This document shows positions 6,339 through 27,381 of a stretch of 31,128 nt of DNA, piece after piece; position 1 is the first letter of the stretch, and every line of letters begins with the position of its first letter. A model generated the notes under the pieces. It saw only the letters and a program-made list of their open reading frames with translations. It made no database searches and was not told where the DNA came from. The translations under genes and the position numbers were made by a program. The stretch spans positions 1-31,128 of the forward strand of contig JAFAPG010000045.1 of the NCBI GenBank assembly GCA_019247235.1, written 5' to 3'. This DNA comes from Acidobacteriota bacterium (GTDB lineage Bacteria > Acidobacteriota > Terriglobia > Terriglobales > Acidobacteriaceae).

Positions 6339-8327
6339 TTAGTGAGACACCCAGTTCGAGCCGTTGCAATAGACAGGGATTCTCACCGCGCCTCCACCTG
6401 CGACGGTCGCGTTGTAGGTGGGCGCATTGGCGTCAGTGACGATGCGAATTTGATCCTGAGCACCAGCGTTGCAAGTGGGAAGACTGGCGACGGTGCTAGC
6501 CGGACCTATCACGGGTGAGGACAGCGTTTTATTTGCAAGCGTGTCGGTTGTACTGGCGAAAACCAGGGTGTCAAAGGAGCCTGCGGCTGCATTGGTGCCC
6601 TGTGAACATTTCGCGCGATATGCCGTGCTGTCGTAGTAGCAGAGAAACAAATTGGTCGCTGGCCCGATATTGACGGAGCCCACAGCCATCGGAGTCATGC
6701 CCCAAGTGAAAAATTCCGGCGTATCCACCGGCCCCCAGGTCTCGCTATTGTAGGCGGAGCCCCCATTGTTGATCGCCGGGTTGTTGGCCGAACTGGGATA
6801 GCAAGCCAGTCGATTGCCTGCGGTAGCCATCGACGAATCCCCTTTGATGTGCCAGTTATAGCTTCCTCCCGATAGATCGATCAGCGCGTCGCAAATCGCA
6901 AAGCCGCTCTGATCCCAAGGGTTTATTGATCGCCAGCTGTTGTTATGTACGTCCACATCGGCGCAGTTGTTGCTAGTCGATTGGATCCCGTGTGCGTGAC
7001 CTCCTCCGTCGAACTGCACGCCGTTGATTTCCATTCCCAGTACTTTGTCACACACGAGAGCTTTATGCGTGTTGCAGGTAGTCGAGCTGTCACCGCAAAG
7101 CTGAAGCACCGAGTCATGGATGTGAATAGCCGCTCCGTTTCCTATGTGCCACGCCGTGAACGTTCCTCCCAAAGCTCCATAGGAAGCGCTGTAGCACTGA
7201 TCGCATTCAATGCCTGCCGGAGCAGGACCACTCGACGCCCCAATGTCATAAGCAGTGGTCGTAGCCGCGTAGCACTGGATATTTTTCATCACCACATTGA
7301 CAGCCGCGTTGCCGCCGCCTCCATTCACGAGGTTTATGCACTTCGGCATTGTCGAGGACGAGTTGAAATTGATCTGAACGCGCTCGATCTGAACGTCGTA
7401 GATACCTGAAACGGCGTTCTGTTGTTGTCGGATATAGGAGTCTGAATAGTTCGCGGTCGTCGGGCTGTAGTTAACGTCGCGGACTTTGATGTGCGCTCCA
7501 CGCAGCGCGATCGCGGAAACAGCCGTTCCAGAATTGGTAAACACGAGCTTCTCGACCGTGACCCAGTATCCAGTAACGAACTGATCGACCCCTGCGCAAG
7601 ACGTGCATTGAATCTGTGTAGCTTTTTCGCCAGCTCCTCGCCAGATGCAACCACCATTCTTACTGTCGATCTGCGCCGAATGTTGATAGGTGCCCGCGCC
7701 GAAAAGGATGGTGCCAAAGTTCTGAAATCCATCGCCGGCCGTCCCAGCACACACCGCATTGACCGCCATAGTGAGGCCGGTGTCGTTGCTTGCGGCCGAG
7801 TTCGAAGTAGATATGCCGAACCACTCCGCGTACGTATTCGCGATGGCAAGCGGCCCGAGCGTCAATTGTGTCCCAGTGCAATTTTGGAAATGCTGAGAAG
7901 CGTCGGCGACGATCGGCGCGTTTATGGTGAGCGTATTCCCGTTGCAATTTAGGATCGCCCCATTGTCCATCTGCAACGTGACCCCGGCGGGGATGGTAGT
8001 GTTCGCGGTCAGCGAATAGGACGACAATGAAGTAAAAGCGTGAATGTAACCGCTAGATGCGGCGCAGGCGACCGCAGAGGCAAAGGTGTTGTTTGAGTCG
8101 GCGGAGCAGGAGCCCCCTAATTGCTTCAAATTTAGGTTGCCGGAAAATTTCGCTTGCCCCTTCCCGCTCTGCGAGATACACGCATCGTTGCCATCGTCTT
8201 CCCCGACGCAAAACTTGTAAGGCGAGAGCACGCGAACATCAGACGACGACCGCCCACCAAAGTTCTGCGCGAAAAGCGGCAAAGAGCAAGAAGAAAAGAG
8301 AGCGAGAACAAAGACAATCTTTTTCAT
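6339..8327 (-). CDS. Beta-helix (pectate-lyase-like) tailspike/depolymerase with N-terminal signal peptide
   Basis: MKKIVFVLALFSSCSLPLFA|Q; TILFGAGTY..GCIWRGAG beta-helix entry; C-terminal TVASLP..VTDA..VAGGG..PVYCNGSNW fibre motif. Confidence 0.8.
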   Translation of the reverse strand: MKKIVFVLALFSSCSLPLFAQNFGGRSSSDVRVLSPYKFCVGEDDGNDACISQSGKGQAKFSGNLNLKQLGGSCSADSNNTFASAVACAASSGYIHAFTSLSSYSLTANTTIPAGVTLQMDNGAILNCNGNTLTINAPIVADASQHFQNCTGTQLTLGPLAIANTYAEWFGISTSNSAASNDTGLTMAVNAVCAGTAGDGFQNFGTILFGAGTYQHSAQIDSKNGGCIWRGAGEKATQIQCTSCAGVDQFVTGYWVTVEKLVFTNSGTAVSAIALRGAHIKVRDVNYSPTTANYSDSYIRQQQNAVSGIYDVQIERVQINFNSSSTMPKCINLVNGGGGNAAVNVVMKNIQCYAATTTAYDIGASSGPAPAGIECDQCYSASYGALGGTFTAWHIGNGAAIHIHDSVLQLCGDSSTTCNTHKALVCDKVLGMEINGVQFDGGGHAHGIQSTSNNCADVDVHNNSWRSINPWDQSGFAICDALIDLSGGSYNWHIKGDSSMATAGNRLACYPSSANNPAINNGGSAYNSETWGPVDTPEFFTWGMTPMAVGSVNIGPATNLFLCYYDSTAYRAKCSQGTNAAAGSFDTLVFASTTDTLANKTLSSPVIGPASTVASLPTCNAGAQDQIRIVTDANAPTYNATVAGGGAVRIPVYCNGSNWVSH

Positions 8328-8333
8328 GAGACC

Positions 8334-10553
8334 TTATCGAGTGACGCGGAAATTCAAAGTCGCTGCTGTGGGGGTGATGGAGTTCGCGGTCGGATTGCAG
8401 TACTGAAAGTTTACGTTGTTCGCGGTCGGCCAGACGCTGACCACTAGCTGCGCGGGATTCGCGGCCGGCGCGGCGTTGTAACTCCAGGTGATGGCGTCGG
8501 TCGTCGCTACCCCGGTTGCTCCTACCGTGACCGTCGTGCCGCAAGCTCCTGATGCAATCGCGGCCGTGGTCATCGTCGCCGTGCCTGCCGCAAGCGACTG
8601 GGTCATGTTAAAGTAAGTGCCGTTATTGATTGAGCACTTGAGAACGTGATTGGTGGAGTCGCCATAACACCAGTCTTGTCCGCTTACGCCCGCGCCGTTG
8701 TTCGGTGTTCCGGTTTCGTAAAACGTGAGGCTGGGAATTTTTGGCCCGATCGATTTGAAGCTATTGTCGACAAACTCCGCTCCTCCCCCGGTGACGGTGA
8801 AGCTGTTCAAGCCGACTTGAACGGCCGCTGCGGTCGCTCCTGAATCGATTTGTAAGCCGTTCGCGTTGGTGAGTGACACCGGACCATAGTTGCGGTCAAT
8901 CAAGACGCGAAAGCTAGCGGTCTGAACTCGAATGGCCGCAATCGCCGAGTTGGTTCCGCTAGACCCCAAGCGGATGAAGTTGCCCGCGATTTCCGCGTCT
9001 CCGATTCCGATGAACTGGACGCCCATGTCGGTGACATCGATAAAGTTGTCCCGAACGTACTGCTGCCCACTTCCCGAGGTCTCGACCCTGACGCCTGCCA
9101 CCTGGCCGAAGGAGATCAAATTGTTGGTGAGGTGTACGTCGCCCGAGTCGCGAAAGTAAACCCCGTACGAAGAGCCGTTGGTCTGATTGAAGTCGTCGAT
9201 CGCGTTATGATCGATCCAGCTGTCGGCGCAGCCCCAGCAATAGATCCCCGCGGGCGCCGTTCCCGCCGAATCGTTTCTAAAACTGGTTTGCGCGGCAATG
9301 AGGTTGTTGTAATGAATGAAGAAGCCGCCGACCCCGCCACCAGCCGATGCCGGAGAACTCAGGCTGCCGTTATCCACCGCGACTGAGTGCGAAGTGGCGT
9401 TCTTGATTTCCAAGTGATCGAGGTAGGTGGTATTCACCTTCCCCATGTGAATGTCATAGACGGCTGAAGATTGGTTTTGGGCGTTCCCGTCGATCGAGAG
9501 GAAGGCAACCCGGGTCCAGTAGATAGTTCCGGCCGTCTGCCCGGTTTCGGCCGCATTGACCCCGATCAGGACGACAGAATGGTTGAGCGAGTTCGCGGCC
9601 TTTAGCGTCGTCTTTTCTGGCCCGGCTCCGATTAGCTCCATTCCCGAGACAAACTGAATCGGGGTCGAAACCGTGTAAGCGCCCTGAGCCAGCAGAATGG
9701 TGCAGCCCCCGGGCGCGGCCACTGGGCCGACACCAGGAGTGACTTGCGGCCCGGTGTAACTCGGGCAAGTCGCACTTGCCGAATTGATCCAGGCTCCTGG
9801 GTCCGAGCCTCCCCAGCCGGCAGAATTTGCGGTATCGACGCAGCGTATCTTTTGAAACTGGTTACAGGTGGCGGTCCCGGTCAGCGTCACCGTGCTCGAA
9901 AAGGTGTTCGCGCCGGAAAAGGTGTTATTGCCGGAATAGGTTCCCGCGCCCGAGGCATTGATCGCCGATGCATTCACGTTCCAGCGATTGCCGGTTGAGC
10001 CAAGCGAAAGCGTACCGCTGCCTGTGGGAGTAACGTTTGCCTGGAAGGGTTGGTTGGCGCCGTCGAGCCGGGCATAAGTAGTATCCCCGGTTGGCGAGCT
10101 GACGACTGGGTTAGTGGTGATCGGAGCCACCTGGGAGATATCTAGCGTGGTGCCTGATTTCGCATGGACGGGCACCTCCGGTCCGGCTTTGCCGTTGAAC
10201 CAGGCTTGCATGCCGTACCAGACGGCCGTAGTCGAACCCCCGCAATTGATATCCCCGCCGAGCAGGCCGGTTGAATCGCGGGTTGAGTAAAGCGTCCCTG
10301 AGACGGCGCCGGATGAGTTCGCGGCAAGGTCGAAATAGAACACTCCCCCCTGAGAAGGCGCGATGAGCGAGGTTCCAGAGACGCGCGGCTGGTTCCCTCC
10401 GCAGCCTCGGAGCCAAAAGCGCATGAAGGCGTTCGGCGTGGTTGCCCCTGTCCCCAGGTTTTGCATGGTGCCGGTAACCGTGGTCGTGGCCTGGACGATG
10501 GCCGGCACAAAGAGCAAGGCGAGAAGTCGAATGAGTCGTTTCATCATCATCAT
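8334..10553 (-). CDS. Beta-helix tailspike with signal peptide and tail-fibre-N-like domain (start is one of four tandem ATGs)
   Basis: MKRLIRLLALLFVPAIVQA|T; TILLAQGAY..MELIGAG beta-helix entry; N-terminal TVTGTMQN..FMRFWL resembles lambda Stf N-terminal domain. Confidence 0.8.
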   Translation of the reverse strand: MMMMKRLIRLLALLFVPAIVQATTTVTGTMQNLGTGATTPNAFMRFWLRGCGGNQPRVSGTSLIAPSQGGVFYFDLAANSSGAVSGTLYSTRDSTGLLGGDINCGGSTTAVWYGMQAWFNGKAGPEVPVHAKSGTTLDISQVAPITTNPVVSSPTGDTTYARLDGANQPFQANVTPTGSGTLSLGSTGNRWNVNASAINASGAGTYSGNNTFSGANTFSSTVTLTGTATCNQFQKIRCVDTANSAGWGGSDPGAWINSASATCPSYTGPQVTPGVGPVAAPGGCTILLAQGAYTVSTPIQFVSGMELIGAGPEKTTLKAANSLNHSVVLIGVNAAETGQTAGTIYWTRVAFLSIDGNAQNQSSAVYDIHMGKVNTTYLDHLEIKNATSHSVAVDNGSLSSPASAGGGVGGFFIHYNNLIAAQTSFRNDSAGTAPAGIYCWGCADSWIDHNAIDDFNQTNGSSYGVYFRDSGDVHLTNNLISFGQVAGVRVETSGSGQQYVRDNFIDVTDMGVQFIGIGDAEIAGNFIRLGSSGTNSAIAAIRVQTASFRVLIDRNYGPVSLTNANGLQIDSGATAAAVQVGLNSFTVTGGGAEFVDNSFKSIGPKIPSLTFYETGTPNNGAGVSGQDWCYGDSTNHVLKCSINNGTYFNMTQSLAAGTATMTTAAIASGACGTTVTVGATGVATTDAITWSYNAAPAANPAQLVVSVWPTANNVNFQYCNPTANSITPTAATLNFRVTR

Positions 10554-14900: not shown

Positions 14901-15347
14901 TTAAATCTTGACGCTCAGCCGGTCCGCAGGCTGCGCTCCCACTGCACGGAGCGATTCTTTCCATTTTGCGCAGCGCTGTTCCGGGCGCTCTTTTGAGCTG
15001 ATGTGAATAAAGGCTTCATGCCCACGCGCGCCTTGATCCTGAAAAAATCCCCTCATGCGGTCGGTCAGCATCTTCGTGGCTCGTACCGCGTGATCTCCCG
15101 AGACGCGAAACACCGGAAGATCGATCCGCATGACGTAGCCGGTAATCCCCAGGATCTCCTTGTAGGAGCCGTCGGCATCAAGTGATACCGCCACCCAAAC
15201 TTTGGCGAAGCGCGCGAGGTTCAAATCTTTGCCGCCTTCAAGTTCACGCGCGCAGTAGTCAACCGCGAGGTCGTGGAGCTTTTTGTCGACTGGCTCTAAG
15301 AGCGCGCCCTGGCCTTGAAAGTCGAGCGGATAAACTGCGATTCGCAT
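14901..15347 (-). CDS. GNAT-fold-like protein (position of T7 gp13-type acyltransferase-like genes)
   Basis: alpha-beta pattern KVWVAV...ILGITGY...; TGATG coupling to the Hint gene; position before ejection genes. Confidence 0.55.
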   Translation of the reverse strand: MRIAVYPLDFQGQGALLEPVDKKLHDLAVDYCARELEGGKDLNLARFAKVWVAVSLDADGSYKEILGITGYVMRIDLPVFRVSGDHAVRATKMLTDRMRGFFQDQGARGHEAFIHISSKERPEQRCAKWKESLRAVGAQPADRLSVKI

Positions 15348-16198
15348 CAGTTGCCGTAGGGCTTCAAGTTGTGCGCGAAGCGCCCATTCACCAGGCGGTA
15401 GCAGTGGTCATCGTCGAGCTTTGAAGGTGTATCGAGCTCGAGGTTATAGACCTTGCCCGAAAATTCGACGCGGGGATAGCGTTCGGTGTTCTTCAAAACC
15501 TCCGCCGCCGGCTTCCAATAGCCATAACCGGCAAACATCAGATGCTCAGGCGTAACCAGCTCGCCTTTCCCCATGTCGATCATCTCGCCAGAAAAGTCGT
15601 GCACTTCGACAAACGCTACACGCTTCCACCCAAGCCGCGAGCAGACGCGATCGCCAATTACCAGTTCCTCGATCGGCTTTAGGCGATGCAGGGTAAAAAC
15701 CCGCGTGTTGCCGGAGAAGCAGGCTCCTCCGTAGCGGCTGACTGAAGTTGCCGAAGGCGCGTAGTCGGTCGTATAGGTTGGAGGGGTTACGGGCATCGCC
15801 GGCGCGCCAGTCTCGGCCGTCGCCGAGCCTTGAATCATCACCTTTTGCGATTCGCGGCCAATCTTTGAAACCGAAGAAATGAAAAAGTTCGTGGTTGGTG
15901 GCGTCGTGCCGGCCGTGCAATCGACGAAGTGCTGAGTTGCCAGGGGATCGCGAATCTCAGCGAACAGCGAAGTTTCAGAATCCTTGTACACCCGGTAGCC
16001 GGCGAGGTCGGTAGCATAAAACGGAGGCCGCCAATTAAGCAGCACGCCCCGCGGCGCGGCGGTTGCAATGACGTCGCGCGGTGGATCGGGTTTACGGTCG
16101 GTTCCTCGGGTGATAGTTGTGTCCTGCGCGTCCCGGCGCGCCTGAATACGTTCGTTCGGGGTCATGTTGATCCCGTAGTTACGCCGAATGATCTTCAC
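15347..16198 (-). CDS. FN3-like domain + Pro/Thr linker + C-terminal Hint (intein-like) domain
   Basis: PDPPRDV...VLLNWRPP...LAGYRVY...FFISSVSKIGRES (FN3); GGA|CFSGNT, VTPEH, VYNL...NGRFAHN (Hint). Confidence 0.85.
   Translation of the reverse strand: MKIIRRNYGINMTPNERIQARRDAQDTTITRGTDRKPDPPRDVIATAAPRGVLLNWRPPFYATDLAGYRVYKDSETSLFAEIRDPLATQHFVDCTAGTTPPTTNFFISSVSKIGRESQKVMIQGSATAETGAPAMPVTPPTYTTDYAPSATSVSRYGGACFSGNTRVFTLHRLKPIEELVIGDRVCSRLGWKRVAFVEVHDFSGEMIDMGKGELVTPEHLMFAGYGYWKPAAEVLKNTERYPRVEFSGKVYNLELDTPSKLDDDHCYRLVNGRFAHNLKPYGN
15368..15721 (-). other. Hint/BIL-type autoprocessing domain (Cys160..Asn277), no homing endonuclease
   Basis: Block A Cys-Phe, block B TxxH, terminal His-Asn followed by Leu. 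Confidence 0.85.
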
Positions 16199-18789: not shown

Positions 18790-19509
18790 CTAGGTCGAGC
18801 GGACCGCGTCTTCAGACATGGCGAGCTGGAGTTTATAGTTTGGGTCGAACTGGCGCTTGGCCATGAGATCGAGGATTCCCTGCTCGTACTCTTCCTTCGC
18901 GTCTTCTGTTTTCTGGTTGGTCGAGCCGTATGCCCACTTGAAAATCTTCCATACCAGCCCCGAGACGATGGTGTTGTGCCCCCAGGCGGGAATGAGCGGC
19001 ACAGCGTCGTTTGTCGAGTCGGTCGCCGGGTTCGGGATCGCCCAGCCCACTACATAAGCCGTATACGCCGCGTCTGGCGGATCCATGCGAATAACGTTGA
19101 TCCCGCTTGGGTCAAGCGTGTAGCGCCCGCCTGGCGCGTTCACGTTTCCCTGCGTAGGCGAGGTAATGGTCGTGTTCTGGATCATCTCGAGCAGAGTCTC
19201 GGGATCGTACATCGGGAGCATTTCGGCCGTCTGAAAGGGATTGGTTGGGATGATGAGCGAAAACTTGGTGATTTCCTCGAGCAGGATCTCGGTCATCGCT
19301 CCGGCTGGCGTGGTCACGACCGAGGTTAGATCATACGTCGGCTGGGCCACGACCGTCTGAAAGCTAAAGACCAGGCGCCGCCACCAAAACCGCTGGCGCT
19401 TACAGATGTCCTGCAAGACCAGGCGGTAGAGGTTGGGCAGGGATAGAACCTTTTCGCCCTTGCGCTCAGAGAGCTGGTTGGCCAGCTCGAGGATTTCGGT
19501 TCGAGTCAT
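18790..19509 (-). CDS. Head-tail adaptor (T7 gp11/P22 gp4-like)
   Basis: MTRTEILELANQL N-terminal helix; PLIPAWGHNTIVSGLVWK..AYG C-terminal motif; position. Confidence 0.7.
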   Translation of the reverse strand: MTRTEILELANQLSERKGEKVLSLPNLYRLVLQDICKRQRFWWRRLVFSFQTVVAQPTYDLTSVVTTPAGAMTEILLEEITKFSLIIPTNPFQTAEMLPMYDPETLLEMIQNTTITSPTQGNVNAPGGRYTLDPSGINVIRMDPPDAAYTAYVVGWAIPNPATDSTNDAVPLIPAWGHNTIVSGLVWKIFKWAYGSTNQKTEDAKEEYEQGILDLMAKRQFDPNYKLQLAMSEDAVRST

Positions 19510-19514
19510 GGGAA

Positions 19515-19598
19515 TTAGTTCAGGGAATCAAGAAAACAGATGAGCCAGACGGCAGAAATCATGCCCAGAAGAAACCAGCAGAGATCGCGAACTTTCAT
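19515..19598 (-). CDS. 27-aa single-TM micropeptide MKVRDLCWFLLGMISAVWLICFLDSLN (not in ORF track)
   Basis: ATG overlaps dehydrogenase stop (ATGA); fills the gap; stop 5 nt before adaptor ATG. Confidence 0.6.
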   Translation of the reverse strand: MKVRDLCWFLLGMISAVWLICFLDSLN

Positions 19599-20887
19599 AC
19601 CGCGCGCGGATCGAGCAGGGCGGCAGATTGCAATGCGCGGTCTTTCGAACTGAGCACGCCGCGCCTCTCGCCTTCCCCGATGCGAATTACTTCAACCCCG
19701 GGAACGTCCGGCATGTAGCGAAAGGGGTCAATGACGATCGAGCCCGGCGCGAACTGATACCGGGTGTAACGCTCGTGCTGGCAGCCGATAAAAACCAGAT
19801 GCGGGGCTTTCGTCACGTCCTTGTCTTCGGTGCACGAGTGGGCCACTCCGCGCCGTTTCAGGATGAAGGAGAGAAGCCTCGCCGGCGATCCGGTGTCGAT
19901 GTTGGTTTCTGGCTTGAACGCCCGCCCCAGGATTACGACCGGAAGCTGGTGCACCTGCCAGCGGTACTCTTCGACGAGGTCTGCCAGGAATTCGCAGTGC
20001 TTTTCGCGGGCCACCATCAGCGACTCGAAGAAGTCGTACGAGAGATTCACATTGCGGGCCAGCCAGGAGAGCGCGATATTGTCGCGCGGGTGGCATCCGC
20101 CTCCGTCGCCCATGCCGGCCTTCAGGTACTTGGTCGAGATAAGGCGTCTGGTCGAAAGCTCGAGCGCCCGGTAGATGTCGTCCACTTTCATGCCGCAGCG
20201 GTGCGCCATCTCGCCGTAAAGATTCGCGAGCACAGTTTTTGCCGTGATGAAGGTGTTGTACAGCACCTTGATGCCTTCGGCGGTGCGGATGTCGGTCTTG
20301 AGCGCCGGCGCGCCATAGCAAATTGTTTCGTAAAAGTGAGCGAGCAGCGTGGCCGCTGCTGGCGAGCGAGCGCCGATCAGCCAAAATTCGGGATTAAGGA
20401 AGTCGTTGTAGACCGTCCCCATGGCGATGAACTGGGGCGAATAGACCAAGTCGAATTTCGCTCCGATGATCGGCAGCACCTCGCGCTCGATCGTCCCCGG
20501 AAGTACCGTCGAGATGACGACGCAGGGCGTCCGTTGAATCAGGTAGCGATTCACTTCTCGGACGCACTCAACCAGATAGTCGTAATTAAAATCCGCGCGC
20601 GTGTCAGGGAGAGGCGTAGCGCCTTCGTAGGCGTCGATGTGCGGTGTCTGGGGTGCCAGGAAAAGAATGTCGGCCCACTGGCAGAGCTCTTCGAGCGAGA
20701 CCATCTCCATCTGCGTCTTTCGGAGCAGCTCTTCGGAATGTGCTTCCTTGAACGGGATCTCGCGCTTCAGTAGATACTGTTTAGGCGCGGCGGAAATGTC
20801 ATAGCCTCGAACCCAGTGGCCGCGCGACTCGATCGAGAGAGCGACCATCAGGCCCAGCTTGCCGCAGCCAACCATGCCCACGTTCAT
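19595..20887 (-). CDS. ugd: UDP-glucose/GDP-mannose dehydrogenase family protein
   Basis: GCGKLG Rossmann motif; PQFIAMG (PEF-like); EGIKVLYNTF; GDGGGCHPRD with catalytic Cys; GRAFKPET. Confidence 0.9.
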   Translation of the reverse strand: MNVGMVGCGKLGLMVALSIESRGHWVRGYDISAAPKQYLLKREIPFKEAHSEELLRKTQMEMVSLEELCQWADILFLAPQTPHIDAYEGATPLPDTRADFNYDYLVECVREVNRYLIQRTPCVVISTVLPGTIEREVLPIIGAKFDLVYSPQFIAMGTVYNDFLNPEFWLIGARSPAAATLLAHFYETICYGAPALKTDIRTAEGIKVLYNTFITAKTVLANLYGEMAHRCGMKVDDIYRALELSTRRLISTKYLKAGMGDGGGCHPRDNIALSWLARNVNLSYDFFESLMVAREKHCEFLADLVEEYRWQVHQLPVVILGRAFKPETNIDTGSPARLLSFILKRRGVAHSCTEDKDVTKAPHLVFIGCQHERYTRYQFAPGSIVIDPFRYMPDVPGVEVIRIGEGERRGVLSSKDRALQSAALLDPRAV

Positions 20888-22542
20888 GCGAGGACCAGCT
20901 CCGGCTTCTGCTCGAAGGCGACGCCGAGCCTCGCCTTCAACTTGCGAATATCTTCAGCCCGCGCGGGTGCAAGGTTTTGGTAGAGCTCGTCCACGTTGTC
21001 CGCTTTATGCCGCTCCAGGCGCTCTTTGTGGGTTTTGTCCCACTCGGCCTTTCCTGTAAGCGGGTGCATGTGCTCGGTGACAAAGGGCAGCGGCACGCGC
21101 CGGCCGATCGCGCTTGCGACTTCGTTCAGCCAGGTATCGTTGTAGTCACTAGAAAAGTAAGGTGGACAGAAATATCCGACCGTCTCGATCCAGGCGCGAT
21201 GCAAAAAGCCATGCGTGCCAAACTGGTCGCCGTACACTCCGTCATCGCCGTGCACGAATACTAGGCGGTCCGGGAAGGCGGCAAAGGCGCGCCGTACGTA
21301 GTCGTCCCAGCCCTTGGTCTTGAAGACGATGTCGTCGCCCGCGTGCATCAGAATTTCGCCAGTTGATACTTCGGCGCAGCGGTTCCACATCTTCGAAAGC
21401 GTGATGCGCGGCCCAAGGACGTTCTTAATCTCTACGCCTTTCCAGAATTCTGGGCCGGGCGTGCAGTCGTCTAAGTCTCGGTAGAGGACAATCTCAGGCA
21501 TTACCGTAGAGGTCTCTAGTAATGAGTCGATCAGCCGTTTGATATTCTCCGGCCTTCCCCTGGTCGGGCAGAGGATTGAAATCTTCATCTCCGGCACGTC
21601 CATCGGATACTGCCCGTGCACCTTGGCTTTCAGGATCGATTGCTCGCGATAAGGCTCAAAATCTCGAATCGAGTAAGAGTAGTGGCCGATGTGTCCAGGC
21701 TGGATTGAGGTGTCGCAGTAGCTCGAGATCCCGGCGTAGCGCTTGGCGACCATGCAGAACCCGACGTCTTCTCCGTACTCGATCGAAGATTTGAATGCTG
21801 GCAGAAATCGGAACCAGTAGCAGAGCTTCTGCTCGTCGAAGGCTTTGAGGCGCGCCGTCTTGATCTCTTCCGCGCGTTCGCTCGAGATCCCATAAAACTC
21901 TTTCTCCCACAGGCAATCAAAGTACGATTGAGCGACTTGCTCGAGCGCGTGCTGAGTGATCAGCATCAGGCCTGTGCCGACGCCTCCAACCTCGAGGAGT
22001 TGCCCTTCCGGCCATTCCCAGATTTGCCCAAAGTCGCCGGTCTCTTCGTTGAAGTGGCGAATGTTTGGAATTGGCGGGTCGGTCCTCCGGGTACAGAGTC
22101 CGGCCACGATGTCCTTTTTATGGGAAAGCAATTTCTCGAGGTGGTCTTCTTCGACCACGATGTCATCGTCGACAAAGAGAATGTGCGTCCAGGGCTTCCC
22201 GCTCTTTAGCTGTTCGGTAATCAGGCCGTTCCGTGACCAGTGCACAACCGAGGCTGAAAGCGGCGCGCCTGCGTAAACCGTGGCGATATCTTTCTCCCGG
22301 GTGTAACGCACCATGCGGCCAAGCGCGTCTTGCATCTGCGGCTCAGGGGCGCGGTACGTGGGGCAGAGAATGCATACGATGGGCTTCTGCTCGGCAGGGT
22401 TCTGTTTCTGGTCCTCGGGCGCCTCAACCGAGATGCCGTAATCTTTGAGTGCGGCGCGGCCGTTCGCCGAGAGCAAGAGCAGTTTCGCGCGCTTACGCCA
22501 TTTCTCCGCCTTCTGCGCTTCGAGTTTGTCTTTGAGGCTCAT
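20884..22542 (-). CDS. Glycosyltransferase with two tandem GT-A (GT2-like) domains
   Basis: Domain 1 ILCPTY..SRN..LFVDDD..GTGLMLI..GEDVGFC..GHIG; domain 2 ILCPTRGRP..WN..GDD..DYNDTW..EHMH. Confidence 0.88.
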   Translation of the reverse strand: MSLKDKLEAQKAEKWRKRAKLLLLSANGRAALKDYGISVEAPEDQKQNPAEQKPIVCILCPTYRAPEPQMQDALGRMVRYTREKDIATVYAGAPLSASVVHWSRNGLITEQLKSGKPWTHILFVDDDIVVEEDHLEKLLSHKKDIVAGLCTRRTDPPIPNIRHFNEETGDFGQIWEWPEGQLLEVGGVGTGLMLITQHALEQVAQSYFDCLWEKEFYGISSERAEEIKTARLKAFDEQKLCYWFRFLPAFKSSIEYGEDVGFCMVAKRYAGISSYCDTSIQPGHIGHYSYSIRDFEPYREQSILKAKVHGQYPMDVPEMKISILCPTRGRPENIKRLIDSLLETSTVMPEIVLYRDLDDCTPGPEFWKGVEIKNVLGPRITLSKMWNRCAEVSTGEILMHAGDDIVFKTKGWDDYVRRAFAAFPDRLVFVHGDDGVYGDQFGTHGFLHRAWIETVGYFCPPYFSSDYNDTWLNEVASAIGRRVPLPFVTEHMHPLTGKAEWDKTHKERLERHKADNVDELYQNLAPARAEDIRKLKARLGVAFEQKPELVLA

Positions 22543-23021
22543 GCTTGCGCGGCCTGGGAGGACGCTTTCTGGATCCAGCTCTGCAGCTCCGCTTCCCGGG
22601 CTTCTTTCACGGCCTGGGCGTGCGACTGCTCGATCGCGCCGGCAAGAATTCTTGCTTTCGCGATTGCCTGCTCGAGCTCGGCCGGGGTCATCGGATCGGT
22701 GCGACGGGATGCGCGTTTATTGGCTTCGGCTCGCTCTTGCGCTTCAACGTCGTCCGCGCACGGCTGTTTGAGTTTCTCTTCCTGCTCGGCCCGGTATTCA
22801 GGCTTGCGGATATAGAAGACGCCGTCTGAGTCGTAGCGCTTTTCGTATTCGTTGGGATGGGCTTCAAAGCCCATGTGGATCTTTTTGTCCGAGGGCGTGG
22901 TGAATTTCTCGAAGGTACGAGGCGCGCAGCTGGGGCACTCGTCCGCGAGCTGTACGCCCTTGTCAGTCCAGCGCGAGCGTACGCGCCGGGATTCAGACTT
23001 GCAGTTCGAGCAGATTGCCAT
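22539..23021 (-). CDS. Zinc-ribbon protein with helical C-terminus
   Basis: CSNC...CPSC; overlapping coupling on both sides. Confidence 0.7.
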   Translation of the reverse strand: MAICSNCKSESRRVRSRWTDKGVQLADECPSCAPRTFEKFTTPSDKKIHMGFEAHPNEYEKRYDSDGVFYIRKPEYRAEQEEKLKQPCADDVEAQERAEANKRASRRTDPMTPAELEQAIAKARILAGAIEQSHAQAVKEAREAELQSWIQKASSQAAQA

Positions 23022-23518
23022 TAGGCGGGCTGTTTCTTCTGTTGCTTAACCTGCGCGAGCAGTTCGTTCCTCTCGTTTTCGAGACGCTGCTCGGCGGCGC
23101 GCAGCTCGTGCTCTTTTTGCGCCAGGCGCTCTTCGGCCGTCTTCCACATCTGATCCCACTGCTCTTGTGTAGCCTGATAGCTGGGTTTCTTGTCGAGCCA
23201 GTACTGAATCTCGGGATCTTTGGTCGAGTATGCCCCGTTGATAAATTCAACCGAGCCCTCGCCGACGAGTTTCACTTCCCCGCCTTCCATGACTTTTTTG
23301 GCGGGCGGAATGTTGCAGACGACAGTTCGGCCGCGAATTACGGGCGCCGTAGAGCCCTCGGCAGGTTTTCCGGGGTCAAGCGGCGCGTCAAGGCAGCGAT
23401 AGGTCTTCTCCTTGACCACGTGGTTCGATTGGCCATCGGCGCATGTCCACTCGCCGATTCCGAATTTCTTCCCGCAAACTTCGCAGGCCCACTCGATAGG
23501 TTGTTTCGCTTGTGACAA
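23021..23518 (-). CDS. Hypothetical protein, N-terminal Cys/His cluster, C-terminal coiled coil (TTG start)
   Basis: GAGGAG SD; WACEVC..WTC..H. Confidence 0.7.
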   Translation of the reverse strand: MSQAKQPIEWACEVCGKKFGIGEWTCADGQSNHVVKEKTYRCLDAPLDPGKPAEGSTAPVIRGRTVVCNIPPAKKVMEGGEVKLVGEGSVEFINGAYSTKDPEIQYWLDKKPSYQATQEQWDQMWKTAEERLAQKEHELRAAEQRLENERNELLAQVKQQKKQPA

Positions 23519-23851: not shown

Positions 23852-23885
23852 AAAAGAATCGGGAGAGGCTTTCGAGGCCCCTCCC
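23852..23885 (-). terminator. Intrinsic terminator after major capsid gene
   Basis: GGGAGGGGC/GCCUCUCCC stem, 7-nt loop, followed by gauucuuuu. Confidence 0.75.
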
Positions 23886-23908
23886 GTTAAAGCAACCAGG
23901 GCGAAACC

Positions 23909-25120
23909 TCAGGCGTAAGCCGAGAGGTCGAACACCCAGGCGTGTTTCTTCTCGTGGCGAATCTCCCAGCCCAACTGCGAACGATACTCGTCCGTTCGAG
24001 TGGTCGAGCCGTCTGGCAGGACGTTCTCGAAGAGCTTGGTGTCTCCGATGAGGTTGTCGCCGCCTCCTGCCAGGTAGCGCATGGCCACTGAAGGCAGGTC
24101 GATGGAATAGGCGTGGTTAGAGAACGAGTTTCCGCCCGGGAAGCCGATATCACCGGTTCCCAAACGGTAGTCGTTGGCGAGCAGGAACTCGCCTAACGCC
24201 ATTTCGAATCGAGCAATCTTCACTCCAAAAACTGTGTCGCCCACGCGGGTGAGCAACTTGTTCTGGGAGTAGAAGTTTAGAGCCGAGATCACCTTGGGCG
24301 CGCAGAGCAAGAGTTTTTGCTTTTCTCCGTAACGAAAGGAGGTCTCTGCAAATGTGTTCCACGTGGTAATGGTCGCCGTGGTGTTGGCGTCGGTCTTGTT
24401 GGTCGAGATGCGGCTCAGCCATCCCATCGTGGTCCACCGTGAAGACGGGGAGTTCAGGGTTTCTGAAGCGCGACCCCAGAGGCCCATGGCCTCGATCTCG
24501 GAGCGATGCCGGATCAAAGCCTTAACCAGCTGGAATTTACGCTCGCCTTGCGGCGCCCCGTACTGCTTGGTGGAAGCAGCGGTGTGGGTAACCTTGATCG
24601 GCGTTTTGAAGATTTGCGCATAGGAGATCTGCACGGTTTTCGCCGTGTACCTCTGAGCTCCGATGTTGTCGTCTTCTTTGAACGCCGAGCCGATGATACG
24701 CAGCGAGCCGGTGGCGGAGATGGTGTCCGCTCCTGATCCGCCGATGCCTCGGGTGATGGTCAAGGTGTTCGAGGCGATTGCGGTCACCAGGAACGTTTCG
24801 GGCGCGGCGTTTGAAGACTGCGCCTTAGGCACGGCCACGATATCGCCCACGCCAAAGAGCGTGCCATCGGCGACGCCGATGTTGGTGATATTTGAAGCGG
24901 TGTCGGCCGCCATCGAGGCCTGGCCCCACAAGCTGACTTCGGTGTCTTCGACCCATTCAAACCGAGGGCCGATCGTCGGCTGCTTACGCTTGGCTGCGTT
25001 GGTAAGCACAAACAGTGGTGCTGCATCGGGTTCGAGCAGGATCATCTGTTCCGAAACGTCACGCACGTTGGTCGTGTCGGTGACGAATTGATTAAAACTG
25101 CGGGCTACGTTTAAAGCCAC
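23909..25120 (-). CDS. Major capsid protein (SU10/DUF5309-like)
   Basis: RDVSEQMILLEPDAAPLF..FEWVED..NY/YAQIFKTPIKVTHTA..RHRSEIE pattern; 403 aa; after scaffold; CAGGAG SD; followed by terminator. Confidence 0.88.
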   Translation of the reverse strand: MALNVARSFNQFVTDTTNVRDVSEQMILLEPDAAPLFVLTNAAKRKQPTIGPRFEWVEDTEVSLWGQASMAADTASNITNIGVADGTLFGVGDIVAVPKAQSSNAAPETFLVTAIASNTLTITRGIGGSGADTISATGSLRIIGSAFKEDDNIGAQRYTAKTVQISYAQIFKTPIKVTHTAASTKQYGAPQGERKFQLVKALIRHRSEIEAMGLWGRASETLNSPSSRWTTMGWLSRISTNKTDANTTATITTWNTFAETSFRYGEKQKLLLCAPKVISALNFYSQNKLLTRVGDTVFGVKIARFEMALGEFLLANDYRLGTGDIGFPGGNSFSNHAYSIDLPSVAMRYLAGGGDNLIGDTKLFENVLPDGSTTRTDEYRSQLGWEIRHEKKHAWVFDLSAYA

Positions 25121-26370: not shown

Positions 26371-27381
26371 TTACTGCACTTGCTCTACTGTTGCGGAAGC
26401 TTTTGCAGAAAATGAAGTGCCGCTAAAAGTTAGTTTGACGACGATGGCGGTCTGGCTGGTGTCGATGTCCACGAGCGCCGTGCCGTAATAATTGCCGGCG
26501 GCGCTAGTGGTGAACGTGAGAGCAGGGGCTGCAGTTCCGCTCTGCACGAGCGACAAGTTTGCCGGCGCTTGCGCGTTGCCATTCGAATCTTTCCAGGTCG
26601 CCGTCCATCCCAGAGTCGCGGTATTAGCAGCCGAAACCGACAGCACGAAGTGGATTCGATAGGTACCAGTCGAGGCATATGGGGGCGTGAATGTTAGAAC
26701 GTTAGAATCGGCTGCACTCTCCGACTTTTGTGAGGTGGCACCGTAGATCCCAACGACGCCTAAGCCAGCCGTCGTGACTCCGTTGTACTTGGTAAGCAAA
26801 TTCACTTGAAGGTTCGAATTGGTGTTGCCGGGAGCAGTTCCGATGCTGAGTGTATTCGAGGTTGCGTAAGAGAGATAAACACTGGGCGTGAGCCCATCGG
26901 TGTTGGCGCTGCTTACAAAGCCGTATCCGCCCGCGCCGCTCATAACCGTTGAACCGTTGTTCGCGAGGATTGCTAGGTGTTCGTGAGACCCATCCATGAC
27001 GCCGATGCGATCGGTCGCCGACCGCGAAAAGCCTAAGCCGGGTTGGTTCGCAAAACTGTAGCTCGGCGCGGTGAGCGAGCCATCTGGTAGCAAGATGGGT
27101 AGAGCCGCGGTAAGCGTCGCGCCGTTGTTGGTCCATCCACTGCCCGCTGCATTCCCGAGCTGAATGTTTGCCCAGTTCGAACCGTTCGACGGGCAGCTAT
27201 AAAGGACGTGGTTCGTCGTGTCGAGATACTGCTGCCCGCCGTTTACGCATGGATTCGAAGGTGCACCGGAGCCCGTGATCTGCGGTGATACCTGGGCAAA
27301 GACGTAGCCGATACAGAGAAGGCAGGCGACGAGCGAAAGCCCGATCGTGAGAGGGAGCCACTTGCGGCGAATCTTGGTCAT
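26371..27381 (-). CDS. Fibre/decoration-like beta protein with signal peptide (start refined to MTKIRR, 336 aa)
   Basis: MTKIRRKWLPLTIGLSLVACLLCIGYVFA|Q; GSLTAPSYSF and YLDTTNHVLYSC fibre motifs; Ser/Thr-rich beta C-terminus. Confidence 0.75.
   Translation of the reverse strand: MTKIRRKWLPLTIGLSLVACLLCIGYVFAQVSPQITGSGAPSNPCVNGGQQYLDTTNHVLYSCPSNGSNWANIQLGNAAGSGWTNNGATLTAALPILLPDGSLTAPSYSFANQPGLGFSRSATDRIGVMDGSHEHLAILANNGSTVMSGAGGYGFVSSANTDGLTPSVYLSYATSNTLSIGTAPGNTNSNLQVNLLTKYNGVTTAGLGVVGIYGATSQKSESAADSNVLTFTPPYASTGTYRIHFVLSVSAANTATLGWTATWKDSNGNAQAPANLSLVQSGTAAPALTFTTSAAGNYYGTALVDIDTSQTAIVVKLTFSGTSFSAKASATVEQVQ

Follow-up and report, generated by a model that had tools for sequence, protein, structure and literature searches.

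What do two enzymes of sugar chemistry do between the capsid and adaptor genes of a phage? The question is raised by a window of 31,128 nt (the whole stretch of DNA analyzed), from which about 15 kb of the phage genome, the early region included, is absent. The phage is an uncultured podophage whose host is probably acidobacterial; the only host clue comes from a Terriglobales bin, which holds a relative whose capsid is 89% identical. All features discussed here are on the minus strand. As the initial annotation had claimed, the cassette is flanked by an SU10-type major capsid protein gene (23909-25120; PF17236, E 7e-29) on the upstream side and an SU10-type head-tail adaptor gene (18790-19509; PF24175, E 1e-8) on the downstream side. 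It comprises a fused glycosyltransferase (GT) ORF of 552 aa (20884-22542) and a 430-aa homologue of NAD-dependent NDP-sugar 6-dehydrogenases, termed UGD* (19595-20887; PF03721, E 1e-17; PF00984, E 2e-15). Most likely, this is a strain-variable virion glycosylation cassette that provides a swappable oxidised sugar coat.

Gene layout and the fused glycosyltransferase

The interval between the capsid and GT genes holds three small ORFs, among them a 165-aa Cys/His-motif ORF (23021-23518) that belongs to no known family and was detected by tblastn in 22/23 relatives, and a 160-aa Cys-motif ORF (22539-23021), a possible accessory without a Pfam, PHROG or NCBIfam match. The latter occurs in 23/23 relatives, always immediately upstream of the GT, which it overlaps here by 4 nt. 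A hairpin resembling an intrinsic terminator by consensus match only (23860-23886; 10-bp stem with 8 G-C pairs, T-run) lies 3' of the capsid gene. Both enzymes had been described as overlapping neighbors in the late operon; this holds for the UGD* and GT genes (4 nt) but not for UGD* and the adaptor gene, which are 85 nt apart, with a 27-codon hydrophobic ORF in the gap (19515-19598) that is not seen in the closest relatives and may not be a gene. In line with the initial annotation, no transmembrane segment was found in the GT or UGD* (highest 19-residue hydropathy 1.18 and 1.51). The cassette genes share the GC3 of the flanking structural genes, and both are under purifying selection when compared with the closest relative (pN/pS 0.19/0.66 and 0.17/0.62 for GT and UGD*, ratio ~0.27-0.29).

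The AlphaFold2 model of the 552-aa protein (pLDDT 92.7) contains two GT-A domains, each matching GT-A structures with Z of 15-17 and each having a metal-binding acidic motif, an acceptor-site Asp and a distal His. The predicted two-domain GT-A enzyme was thus recovered, and structural classification assigns the GT-A fold to both halves. The N-terminal domain, GT_N (residues 1-312; 21607-22542; phrog_1574, E 8e-16), is a proposed priming, protein-acting transferase with invariant D125-D126-D127, E258-D259 and H284 in 84 homologues. The C-terminal domain, GT_C (residues 313-552; 20884-21606; phrog_14945, E 8e-34), is an optional module and a proposed extending transferase with invariant D356, D358, D403, D404, D469 and H491.

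The earlier label of a tandem GT2 is correct as to two GT-A domains, but the PF00535 score of 18.4 bits is below the gathering cut-off of 23.3, and the GT_C profile gave only weak N-terminal matches to solved GT2 enzymes. Tandem duplication of a single GT2 domain was rejected, as the halves show no sequence relationship (best E 0.06) and occur apart. Rather than a repeat, the protein joins two unrelated GT-A enzymes, both restricted to viruses, as separate modules that differ in their partners: GT_C is found on its own, joined to GT_N or joined to the dehydrogenase.

In 23/23 relatives GT_N, a core gene of the phage family, stands behind the capsid gene, and its distant homologues in two unrelated phages, Microcystis phage Mel-JY34 and ctyzp037, follow the capsid gene immediately or at a distance of one gene. 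Among 48,161 chains, the top VIA-align match of GT_N is STIV A197 (PDB 2c0n; Z 17.1, rmsd 2.4 over 171 residues, 21% identity), and high structural scores were also obtained with two protein-glycan enzymes, yeast Mnn9 and collagen galactosyltransferase. Clusters of GT_N look-alikes in the Atlas are 73-100% viral.

A dehydrogenase clade without the hydrolytic glutamate

UGD* scores above the cut-offs of PF03721, the N-terminal Rossmann domain, and PF00984, the central helical domain (64.6 and 57 bits), and conserves G7, G9 and G12 of GxGxxG and the acidic D30 that follows beta-2. C265, K207, N211, T127 and D269 are invariant in sets of 120 and 93 homologues, and Arg248 and Lys325 of the family are also kept. 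The AlphaFold2 model (pLDDT 93.8) resembles GDP-mannose dehydrogenase 1mfz (TM 0.80). PF03720, the UDP-binding domain, has no match on UGD*, though it does on some homologues; in this region the model shows a compact C-terminal alpha/beta domain, with Lys325 invariant. For TIGR03026, UGD* reaches 165.7 bits against a cut-off of 189.8, and all equivalogs remain far below cut-off.

The initial annotation called this a UGD-family enzyme with intact motifs, which is true of the Rossmann motif and Cys265 but not of the thioester-hydrolysing Glu. Gln152 aligns with that residue of solved enzymes (human Glu161), and Glu was found at this position in 0/120, 0/93 and 0/150 sequences of three homologue sets; within the clade the position is Q, F, Y, L, S or A. 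The second Glu of canonical enzymes is Met in UGD*, and two aromatic or hydrophobic positions by the Cys loop have become Asp261 and His266. These mostly viral sequences form one clade with support 100 in a tree computed after removal of the motif columns, whereas four host-bin copies of the dehydrogenase retain the hydrolytic Glu. A literature search, with most subscription papers outside its coverage, found nothing relevant on a glutamate-less UGD clade or on UGD with NadE in phages.

Loss of the general-base Glu cuts the kcat of human UGDH 610-fold (PMC3265891). Gln152 is the natural equivalent of the crippling E161Q mutation, and a radical-SAM gene carried by six close relatives is absent here, neither a remnant nor a second copy having turned up in the rest of the window or in the bin; both would fit a degenerating cassette with a dead dehydrogenase. 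We regard such decay as very improbable, since hundreds of divergent sequences show no change in Cys, Lys, Asn, Thr, Asp, Arg or the NAD motif, the pN/pS ratio is low, and the layout most often met elsewhere is GT_C beside UGD* with no radical-SAM gene. A dead dehydrogenase was rejected on residue conservation and pN/pS.

In a working enzyme, UGD* with NAD+ would oxidise C6 of a host NDP-sugar through a Cys265 thiohemiacetal and thioester, and the new Asp261/His266 pair with water would probably replace Glu in releasing the thioester as NDP-uronate. The uronic-acid product proposed in the initial annotation is weaker than was assumed because the whole clade lacks this general-base Glu; we give this predicted product about an even chance. 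Otherwise, UGD* would transfer the uronyl group to another nucleophile or release a part-oxidised or epimerised sugar. CoA-acylating aldehyde dehydrogenases, which have no base Glu, offer an analogy. A UGD* that acylates rather than hydrolyses, with an amine or alcohol taking over the uronyl group from the thioester (uronamide or ester), or that lets go of a part-oxidised or epimerised sugar, with GT_C installing the new sugar on the capsid, is the less favored but tangible option. If true, this reaction would be new to the UGD superfamily and would supply the donor for variable virion glycans across hundreds of viruses. Everywhere, members of the clade carry the annotation 'UDP-glucose dehydrogenase' and are therefore taken for ordinary auxiliary metabolic genes, though a residue regarded as essential is missing. 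Since UGD* is present in the cultured phages HTVC008M and Bellamy, its chemistry and target are testable now.

GT_C and UGD* constitute one module. A UGD-family gene lies within 7 kb of GT_C at 53/79 loci (32/45 groups), GT_C occurs at 37/93 UGD* loci, and fusions of the two, in both gene orders, were seen in 8/150 distant representatives. Complex prediction for UGD* with GT_C returned no answer (score 0.00) and weighs neither way. The module moves among unrelated viruses mostly without GT_N, which is near only 10/93 UGD* loci, as would be expected if the fusion were incidental and GT_N alone glycosylated the virion, with GT_C and UGD* yielding something else, such as a small molecule bearing an acyl or sugar group or a modified host defence protein. 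The non-standard chemistry permitted by Glu loss (PMC3265891) would suit such a division. We find it quite unlikely, however, as the GT_N-GT_C fusion is retained in ~80 homologues (40-72% identity), and phages without it carry other second GTs (GT4, MTase-GT2) in the same place, the pattern that would arise if different second sugars were put on a single primer. When contigs are paired by length, fused GT_N accompanies UGD* in 16/70 cases and lone GT_N in 0/15 (p 0.06), a difference between non-independent kin that is not relied on.

The swappable slot and its candidate targets

Downstream of GT_N, and bounded by the adaptor gene, relatives have a slot that holds only glycan-type enzymes: GT_C, methyltransferases, GT4, SDR epimerase/dehydratase, B12 radical SAM and UGD. 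Its content changed 5 times across the capsid tree of 16 phages and differs between the sister phages L028 and L029 (support 99); the present phage has a stripped version of the cassette.

Could these enzymes act on the host surface? Soluble GTs could alter a lipid-linked or LPS/EPS precursor at the cytoplasmic face, in lysogens or late in infection, and so block superinfection or re-adsorption. Integrases in 2/5 relatives, the presence of the UGD* clade in large, partly cellular-looking glycan clusters and the structural resemblance of GT_C to glycan-extending GTs are compatible with this. However, no membrane GT, flippase, polymerase or bactoprenol GT was found in 14 complete slots, neither enzyme spans a membrane, the cassette is translationally coupled to late genes, with no sigma70-like minus-strand promoter detected by a weak scan of 18.5-26.5 kb, and L025 retains GT_N in an otherwise empty slot. 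Host-surface modification is accordingly rated as rather unlikely.

Much the same low standing is given to DNA hypermodification, in which an acidic sugar would be added to phage DNA bases late, before packaging, and block nucleases. Transfer of hexuronic acid to 5hmC is within the reach of GT-A enzymes from phages (10.1101/2023.12.21.572611), and in some marine phages UGD* lies between DNA polymerase A and a NadE-like gene, with genes for a ThyA-like protein and a C5 methyltransferase close by. These NadE-like neighbors keep the usual NAD-synthetase motifs, so that amidoligase and true NadE are not separable. Against DNA as the target, no ThyA-type hydroxymethylase was found in family records (0/5 and 0/3; two terminal-repeat genomes and one 100%-complete UGD*-bearing relative) by a search that recovered its positive control, and no TET/JBP match by a search that rang in no control genome; moreover, the cassette lies inside the head-neck operon and its best folds are protein/glycan GTs. 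Palindromes gave a mixed result as a test of DNA protection: avoidance of 6-bp palindromes is slight in the window and three nearest relatives (0.80-0.94 of expected), which would favor DNA modification, but strong in full-cassette L061, L029 and L075 (0.28-0.58 of expected), which speaks against it, and avoidance does not differ by cassette type (p 0.45). Both alternatives had been named by the initial annotation and are kept, as less likely ones.

Virion glycosylation is the best-supported reading because the position of GT_N is fixed, its fold is A197-like, a tailoring slot follows it, and neither a hydroxymethylase nor a membrane GT or flippase was found. We think it probable that head/neck proteins are O-glycosylated late and in the cytoplasm, with GT_N as the priming enzyme and GT_C as the one that attaches a C6-oxidised sugar. 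Late read-through past the capsid terminator would give two soluble cytoplasmic enzymes at a lower level, in catalytic amounts. With a host NDP-sugar as donor, GT_N would place the first sugar on Ser/Thr of head/neck proteins that assemble in the cytoplasm, most likely the major capsid protein, and GT_C would link the UGD* product to this primer. In close relatives, the B12 radical-SAM enzyme and O-methyltransferases would methylate the glycan. The late cytoplasmic glycosylation of virion proteins put forward in the initial annotation is thus the favored reading on gene position, fold and slot.

The candidate acceptor has an inserted, Ser/Thr-rich and more variable region at residues ~61-140; its S+T fraction is 0.26 in 61-140, 0.41 in 216-260 and 0.13 elsewhere. 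The last capsid residue is Ala, Ser or Gln, and Ser/Thr occurs within the last four residues in 21/21 capsids. The nearest cultured capsid matches are 22-27% identical. Counting against virion glycosylation, tblastn gave no homology to mycobacteriophage GTs, the capsid here ends in Ala, and GT_C and UGD* also occur outside structural operons. Because Streptomyces phages have their GT_C homologues among replication genes and some marine phages have UGD* beside polymerase, this chemistry is not tied to virions everywhere. A core capsid-linked transferase with a swappable slot implies, for soil podophages, variation of the coat glycan akin to that of O-antigen in bacteria, and raises the question of what selects for coat variation (mineral adsorption, proteases, capsid-sensing defences or grazing).

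Comparison with known systems

GtrABC serotype conversion by lysogens employs a membrane GT, a flippase and a bactoprenol GT; the present cassette differs in having no transmembrane segments and no such genes in the complete slots. Phage DNA glycosylation clusters (the T4 type and 5mYOX/TET-GT clusters) likewise combine soluble GT-A enzymes with a nucleotide-sugar tailoring enzyme, but here the site is a structural operon and no enzyme making hydroxymethylpyrimidine was found in complete relatives. With dehydrogenases of the human UGDH, AlgD and WecC type, UGD* shares the fold, the NAD motif and Thr127, Lys207, Asn211, Arg248, Cys265, Asp269 and Lys325; it differs in lacking Glu, in Asp261/His266, in falling below the TIGR03026 cut-off, in being mostly viral and in its genetic tie to GT_C.

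Further points of comparison are the paired GTs (phrog_14945) of Streptomyces phages of the Stanwilliamsviridae and the glycan clusters of Pelagibacter phage HTVC008M and Synechococcus phage Bellamy. The GT_C homologues among them are 28-35% identical; in HTVC008M one occurs together with UGD*, and UGD* is also present in Bellamy. In contrast to the present locus, these are uncharacterised clusters outside the capsid operon, with partners that are nucleotidyltransferase, or NadE-like, carbamoyltransferase and methyltransferase genes.

STIV A197 is an essential viral GT-A proposed to act on the glycosylated capsid protein B345, its acceptor itself being unproven (PMC10551542). GT_N shares its minimal viral GT-A fold, but A197 is a single-domain enzyme of an archaeal virus with no donor pathway.

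To our knowledge, virion glycosylation of tailed phages has been shown only in a few actinobacteriophages. As described in two published accounts, mycobacteriophages Che8 and Corndog each encode several soluble GTs, proposed to decorate capsid or tail proteins in the cytoplasm (PMC11256854, PMC12619734), and the Che8/Corndog-type glycan is reported at the capsid C-terminus, on the terminal Ser (PMC12619734). The likeness is one of soluble phage GTs and proposed cytoplasmic decoration. No Mycobacterium phages were among 74 and 71 tblastn matches of the GTs, which leaves room for remote homology, and the present phage differs as a podophage of a probably acidobacterial host without a conserved terminal Ser, with its own donor-making enzyme and a swappable slot behind the core GT.

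The late operon

The window spans a complete contig from a metagenome bin and carries late genes of a podophage-like virus, all of them on the minus strand. Terminase, portal and scaffold genes lie upstream of an SU10-type major capsid gene (23909-25120), which is followed by three small ORFs, a glycosyltransferase (20884-22542), a UGD-family dehydrogenase (19595-20887), an SU10-type adaptor (18790-19509), and nozzle-like, ejection-like, spike and lysis genes. Many relatives whose capsid is 73-91% identical turn up in viral and metagenome collections, and their genomes measure 45-47 kb when complete. One was binned with a Terriglobales genome, integrases occur in two of five, and no close cultured phage was found. 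At 15347-16198, a C-terminal extension absent from most relatives resembles intein (Hint) regions.

Both cassette ORFs are real, since their codon composition is like that of the flanking genes and non-synonymous change against the closest relative is well under synonymous change (0.19/0.66 for the glycosyltransferase, 0.17/0.62 for the dehydrogenase). They lie between the capsid and adaptor genes, as the initial annotation had it, and its report that neither enzyme has a transmembrane segment was confirmed. The overlap with neighbours that it described for both enzymes holds for the glycosyltransferase (4 nt on each side), whereas the dehydrogenase lies 85 nt from the adaptor. A 27-codon hydrophobic ORF (19515-19598), coupled to the dehydrogenase stop, sits in this gap and is not present in the nearest relatives. 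Between the capsid and glycosyltransferase genes lie two small Cys-motif ORFs (22539-23518) that belong to no known family; they are conserved to the same degree as the N-terminal glycosyltransferase domain and could be glycosylation accessories or head proteins.

Given the strong hairpin 3' of the capsid gene and the absence of hits in a search of the cassette region for sigma70-like promoters on the minus strand, we simply infer that the cassette would be expressed late by read-through, in line with the timing first proposed. With neither a promoter of its own nor membrane components found, the cassette is also less likely to convert the host surface.

Two glycosyltransferases and a swappable slot

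The AlphaFold2 model of the glycosyltransferase (pLDDT 92.7) contains two GT-A domains, here GT_N (residues 1-312) and GT_C (313-552). In both domains, the metal-binding acids, the catalytic acids and a distal His do not vary among aligned homologues. An earlier reading as tandem GT2 was right about the two domains but not about their kinship: they have no similarity to one another, and PF00535 scores below its cut-off. Both families are almost exclusively viral.

GT_N occurs in 23 of 23 relatives, frequently as a stand-alone 315-aa protein. Its gene lies downstream of the capsid gene and in every case follows one and the same small Cys-motif gene. Among distant homologues of GT_N, that of the cultured Microcystis phage Mel-JY34 comes after the capsid gene, that of another unrelated phage lies between the genes for the capsid and for tail tubular protein A, and a third is not in a structural context. 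Of 48,161 chains compared, STIV A197 matches GT_N best in structure (Z 17.1); this essential viral GT-A enzyme has been proposed, though not proven, to glycosylate B345, a capsid protein that is glycosylated (PMC10551542).

The slot between GT_N and the adaptor gene is swappable, as judged from 14 relatives with the entire capsid-to-adaptor span. In six, a fused GT_C is accompanied by a B12 radical-SAM enzyme and the dehydrogenase (plus an additional methyltransferase in two of them); five carry a methyltransferase, a GT4 and an SDR epimerase; and one each has a methyltransferase-GT2 fusion, GT_C with radical SAM and SDR, or GT_C alone. These types are dispersed over the capsid tree with five changes each, and the sister phages L028 and L029 (support 99) have different ones. 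In the window, GT_C and the dehydrogenase meet at a clean junction without a radical-SAM gene or remnant. All slot genes are glycan-building or glycan-tailoring, and none encodes a membrane protein. One relative, whose slot lacks the dehydrogenase, has a second, lone GT_C gene among ejection-type genes (L025:19036-19752). On a 116-kb ENA contig (L074), a block of radical-SAM, dehydrogenase and adaptor genes adjoins bacterial genes with no upstream capsid gene, and is either a truncated prophage or a misjoin.

A dehydrogenase clade without the hydrolytic glutamate

The predicted dehydrogenase fold (TM 0.80 to GDP-mannose dehydrogenase) retains Thr127, Lys207, Asn211, Arg248, Cys265, Asp269 and Lys325, and the Rossmann and catalytic-Cys motifs first described as intact are present; residue 152, however, is Gln, at the position where solved enzymes have the Glu of their PEF motif. 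In human UGDH, thioester hydrolysis uses Glu161 as its base, and the E161Q exchange reduces kcat 610-fold and leaves the thioester trapped (PMC3265891). Our query scored 51.8 bits against the E161Q structure 3khu and 50.4 bits against the wild-type chain, as expected if the two positions match. Glu at position 152 was found in none of 120 close homologues, 93 further viral loci and 150 representatives (50% clustering); four UGD-family copies in the host bin retain it. In a FastTree phylogeny built without the motif columns, the Glu-less sequences group into one clade (support 100). Of its 121 scorable rows, 118 also have Asp261 and His266, whereas Glu-bearing enzymes have aromatic or aliphatic residues there. 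Clade patterns are matched by at least 593 viral stretches, and no member was found among 300 genomes of the bin's phylum; some copies lie within cellular-looking glycan clusters. By sequence, the enzyme is thus not a canonical UGD, and a literature search found no paper on the clade. Inteins interrupt the catalytic Cys motif in about 30 of 150 representatives and at L194:10807-13269, L201:11969-14683 and L243:11719-14673.

The supposed production of a uronic-acid sugar becomes less certain with the missing Glu, and we give a free uronate roughly even chances. It is favoured by the new Asp/His as a replacement base, by NadE-like neighbours that could amidate a carboxylate, and by the few GT_C genes whose partner is a Glu-bearing sister enzyme. 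Alternatively, given what is known of the fold, Asp261/His266 may alter the shape of the nucleotide pocket. Acyl transfer is improbable, as is, equally, an aldehyde, keto or epimerised product; a non-hexose substrate is less probable still.

GT_C and the Glu-less dehydrogenase form one module. Co-occurrence fractions are upper estimates, because the GT_C search was seeded by an alignment including dehydrogenase-linked members and kin are not independent: a GT_C homologue lies within 5 kb of the dehydrogenase in 37 of 93 loci (28 of 50 groups), and a UGD-family gene, nearly always Glu-less, near GT_C in 53 of 79 (39 of 51 with wide flanks; 32 of 45 groups). Free of both biases are fusions of the two in 8 of 150 distant representatives, in both orders. 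Most GT_C loci without a UGD-family gene have an SDR sugar enzyme; other recurrent dehydrogenase partners in the 93 loci are B12 radical SAM (19), NadE-like (18, 15 adjacent) and carbamoyltransferase (7) genes. In two loci (L091, L095), a single GT_C gene has a Glu-less homologue on one side and a Glu-bearing one on the other; the two are therefore not redundant. The dehydrogenase would thus make the donor of GT_C.

Proposed acceptors and known cassettes

Most likely, GT_N would attach a first sugar to Ser/Thr of head or neck proteins, to which GT_C would add a C6-oxidised one. Candidate acceptor sites are Ser/Thr-rich capsid regions (S+T 0.26 in an inserted region and 0.41 in a second stretch, versus 0.13 elsewhere). 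Signal-peptide-like leaders occur in two spike genes (6339-8327 and 8334-10553), making spikes less likely acceptors for cytoplasmic enzymes, and in a gene between portal and scaffold (26371-27381).

Modification of phage DNA is a possible alternative, given that GT-A enzymes can add hexuronate to DNA (10.1101/2023.12.21.572611). Such use of the clade is possible in marine phages, where it occurs among DNA-metabolism genes: L009-L016 and L129-L135 have consecutive genes for DNA polymerase A, Glu-less dehydrogenase and a NadE-like protein, with ThyA-like and C5 methyltransferase genes nearby. However, the usual acceptor-making enzyme was not found in complete relatives, and 6-bp palindromes are strongly avoided in three full-cassette relatives, though not in the window itself. 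A TET/JBP search gave no hits, in control genomes either. Within the family (window, L029, L061, L028, L038), the degree of avoidance varies from none (0.9) to strong (0.3) and follows GC content, not cassette type. The cultured marine myophages HTVC008M and Bellamy, which carry a Glu-less dehydrogenase with NadE-like, carbamoyltransferase, methyltransferase and glycosyltransferase genes, are good test material for this enzyme.

The glycosylation cassette is real and probably virion-directed. Virion glycosylation cassettes are known from mycobacteriophages, and that of the window is a variant of the same kind; new here are its division into a core capsid-linked glycosyltransferase and a mobile GT_C-dehydrogenase module, and the sequence-based placement of the dehydrogenase in a large viral clade that lacks the hydrolytic Glu.
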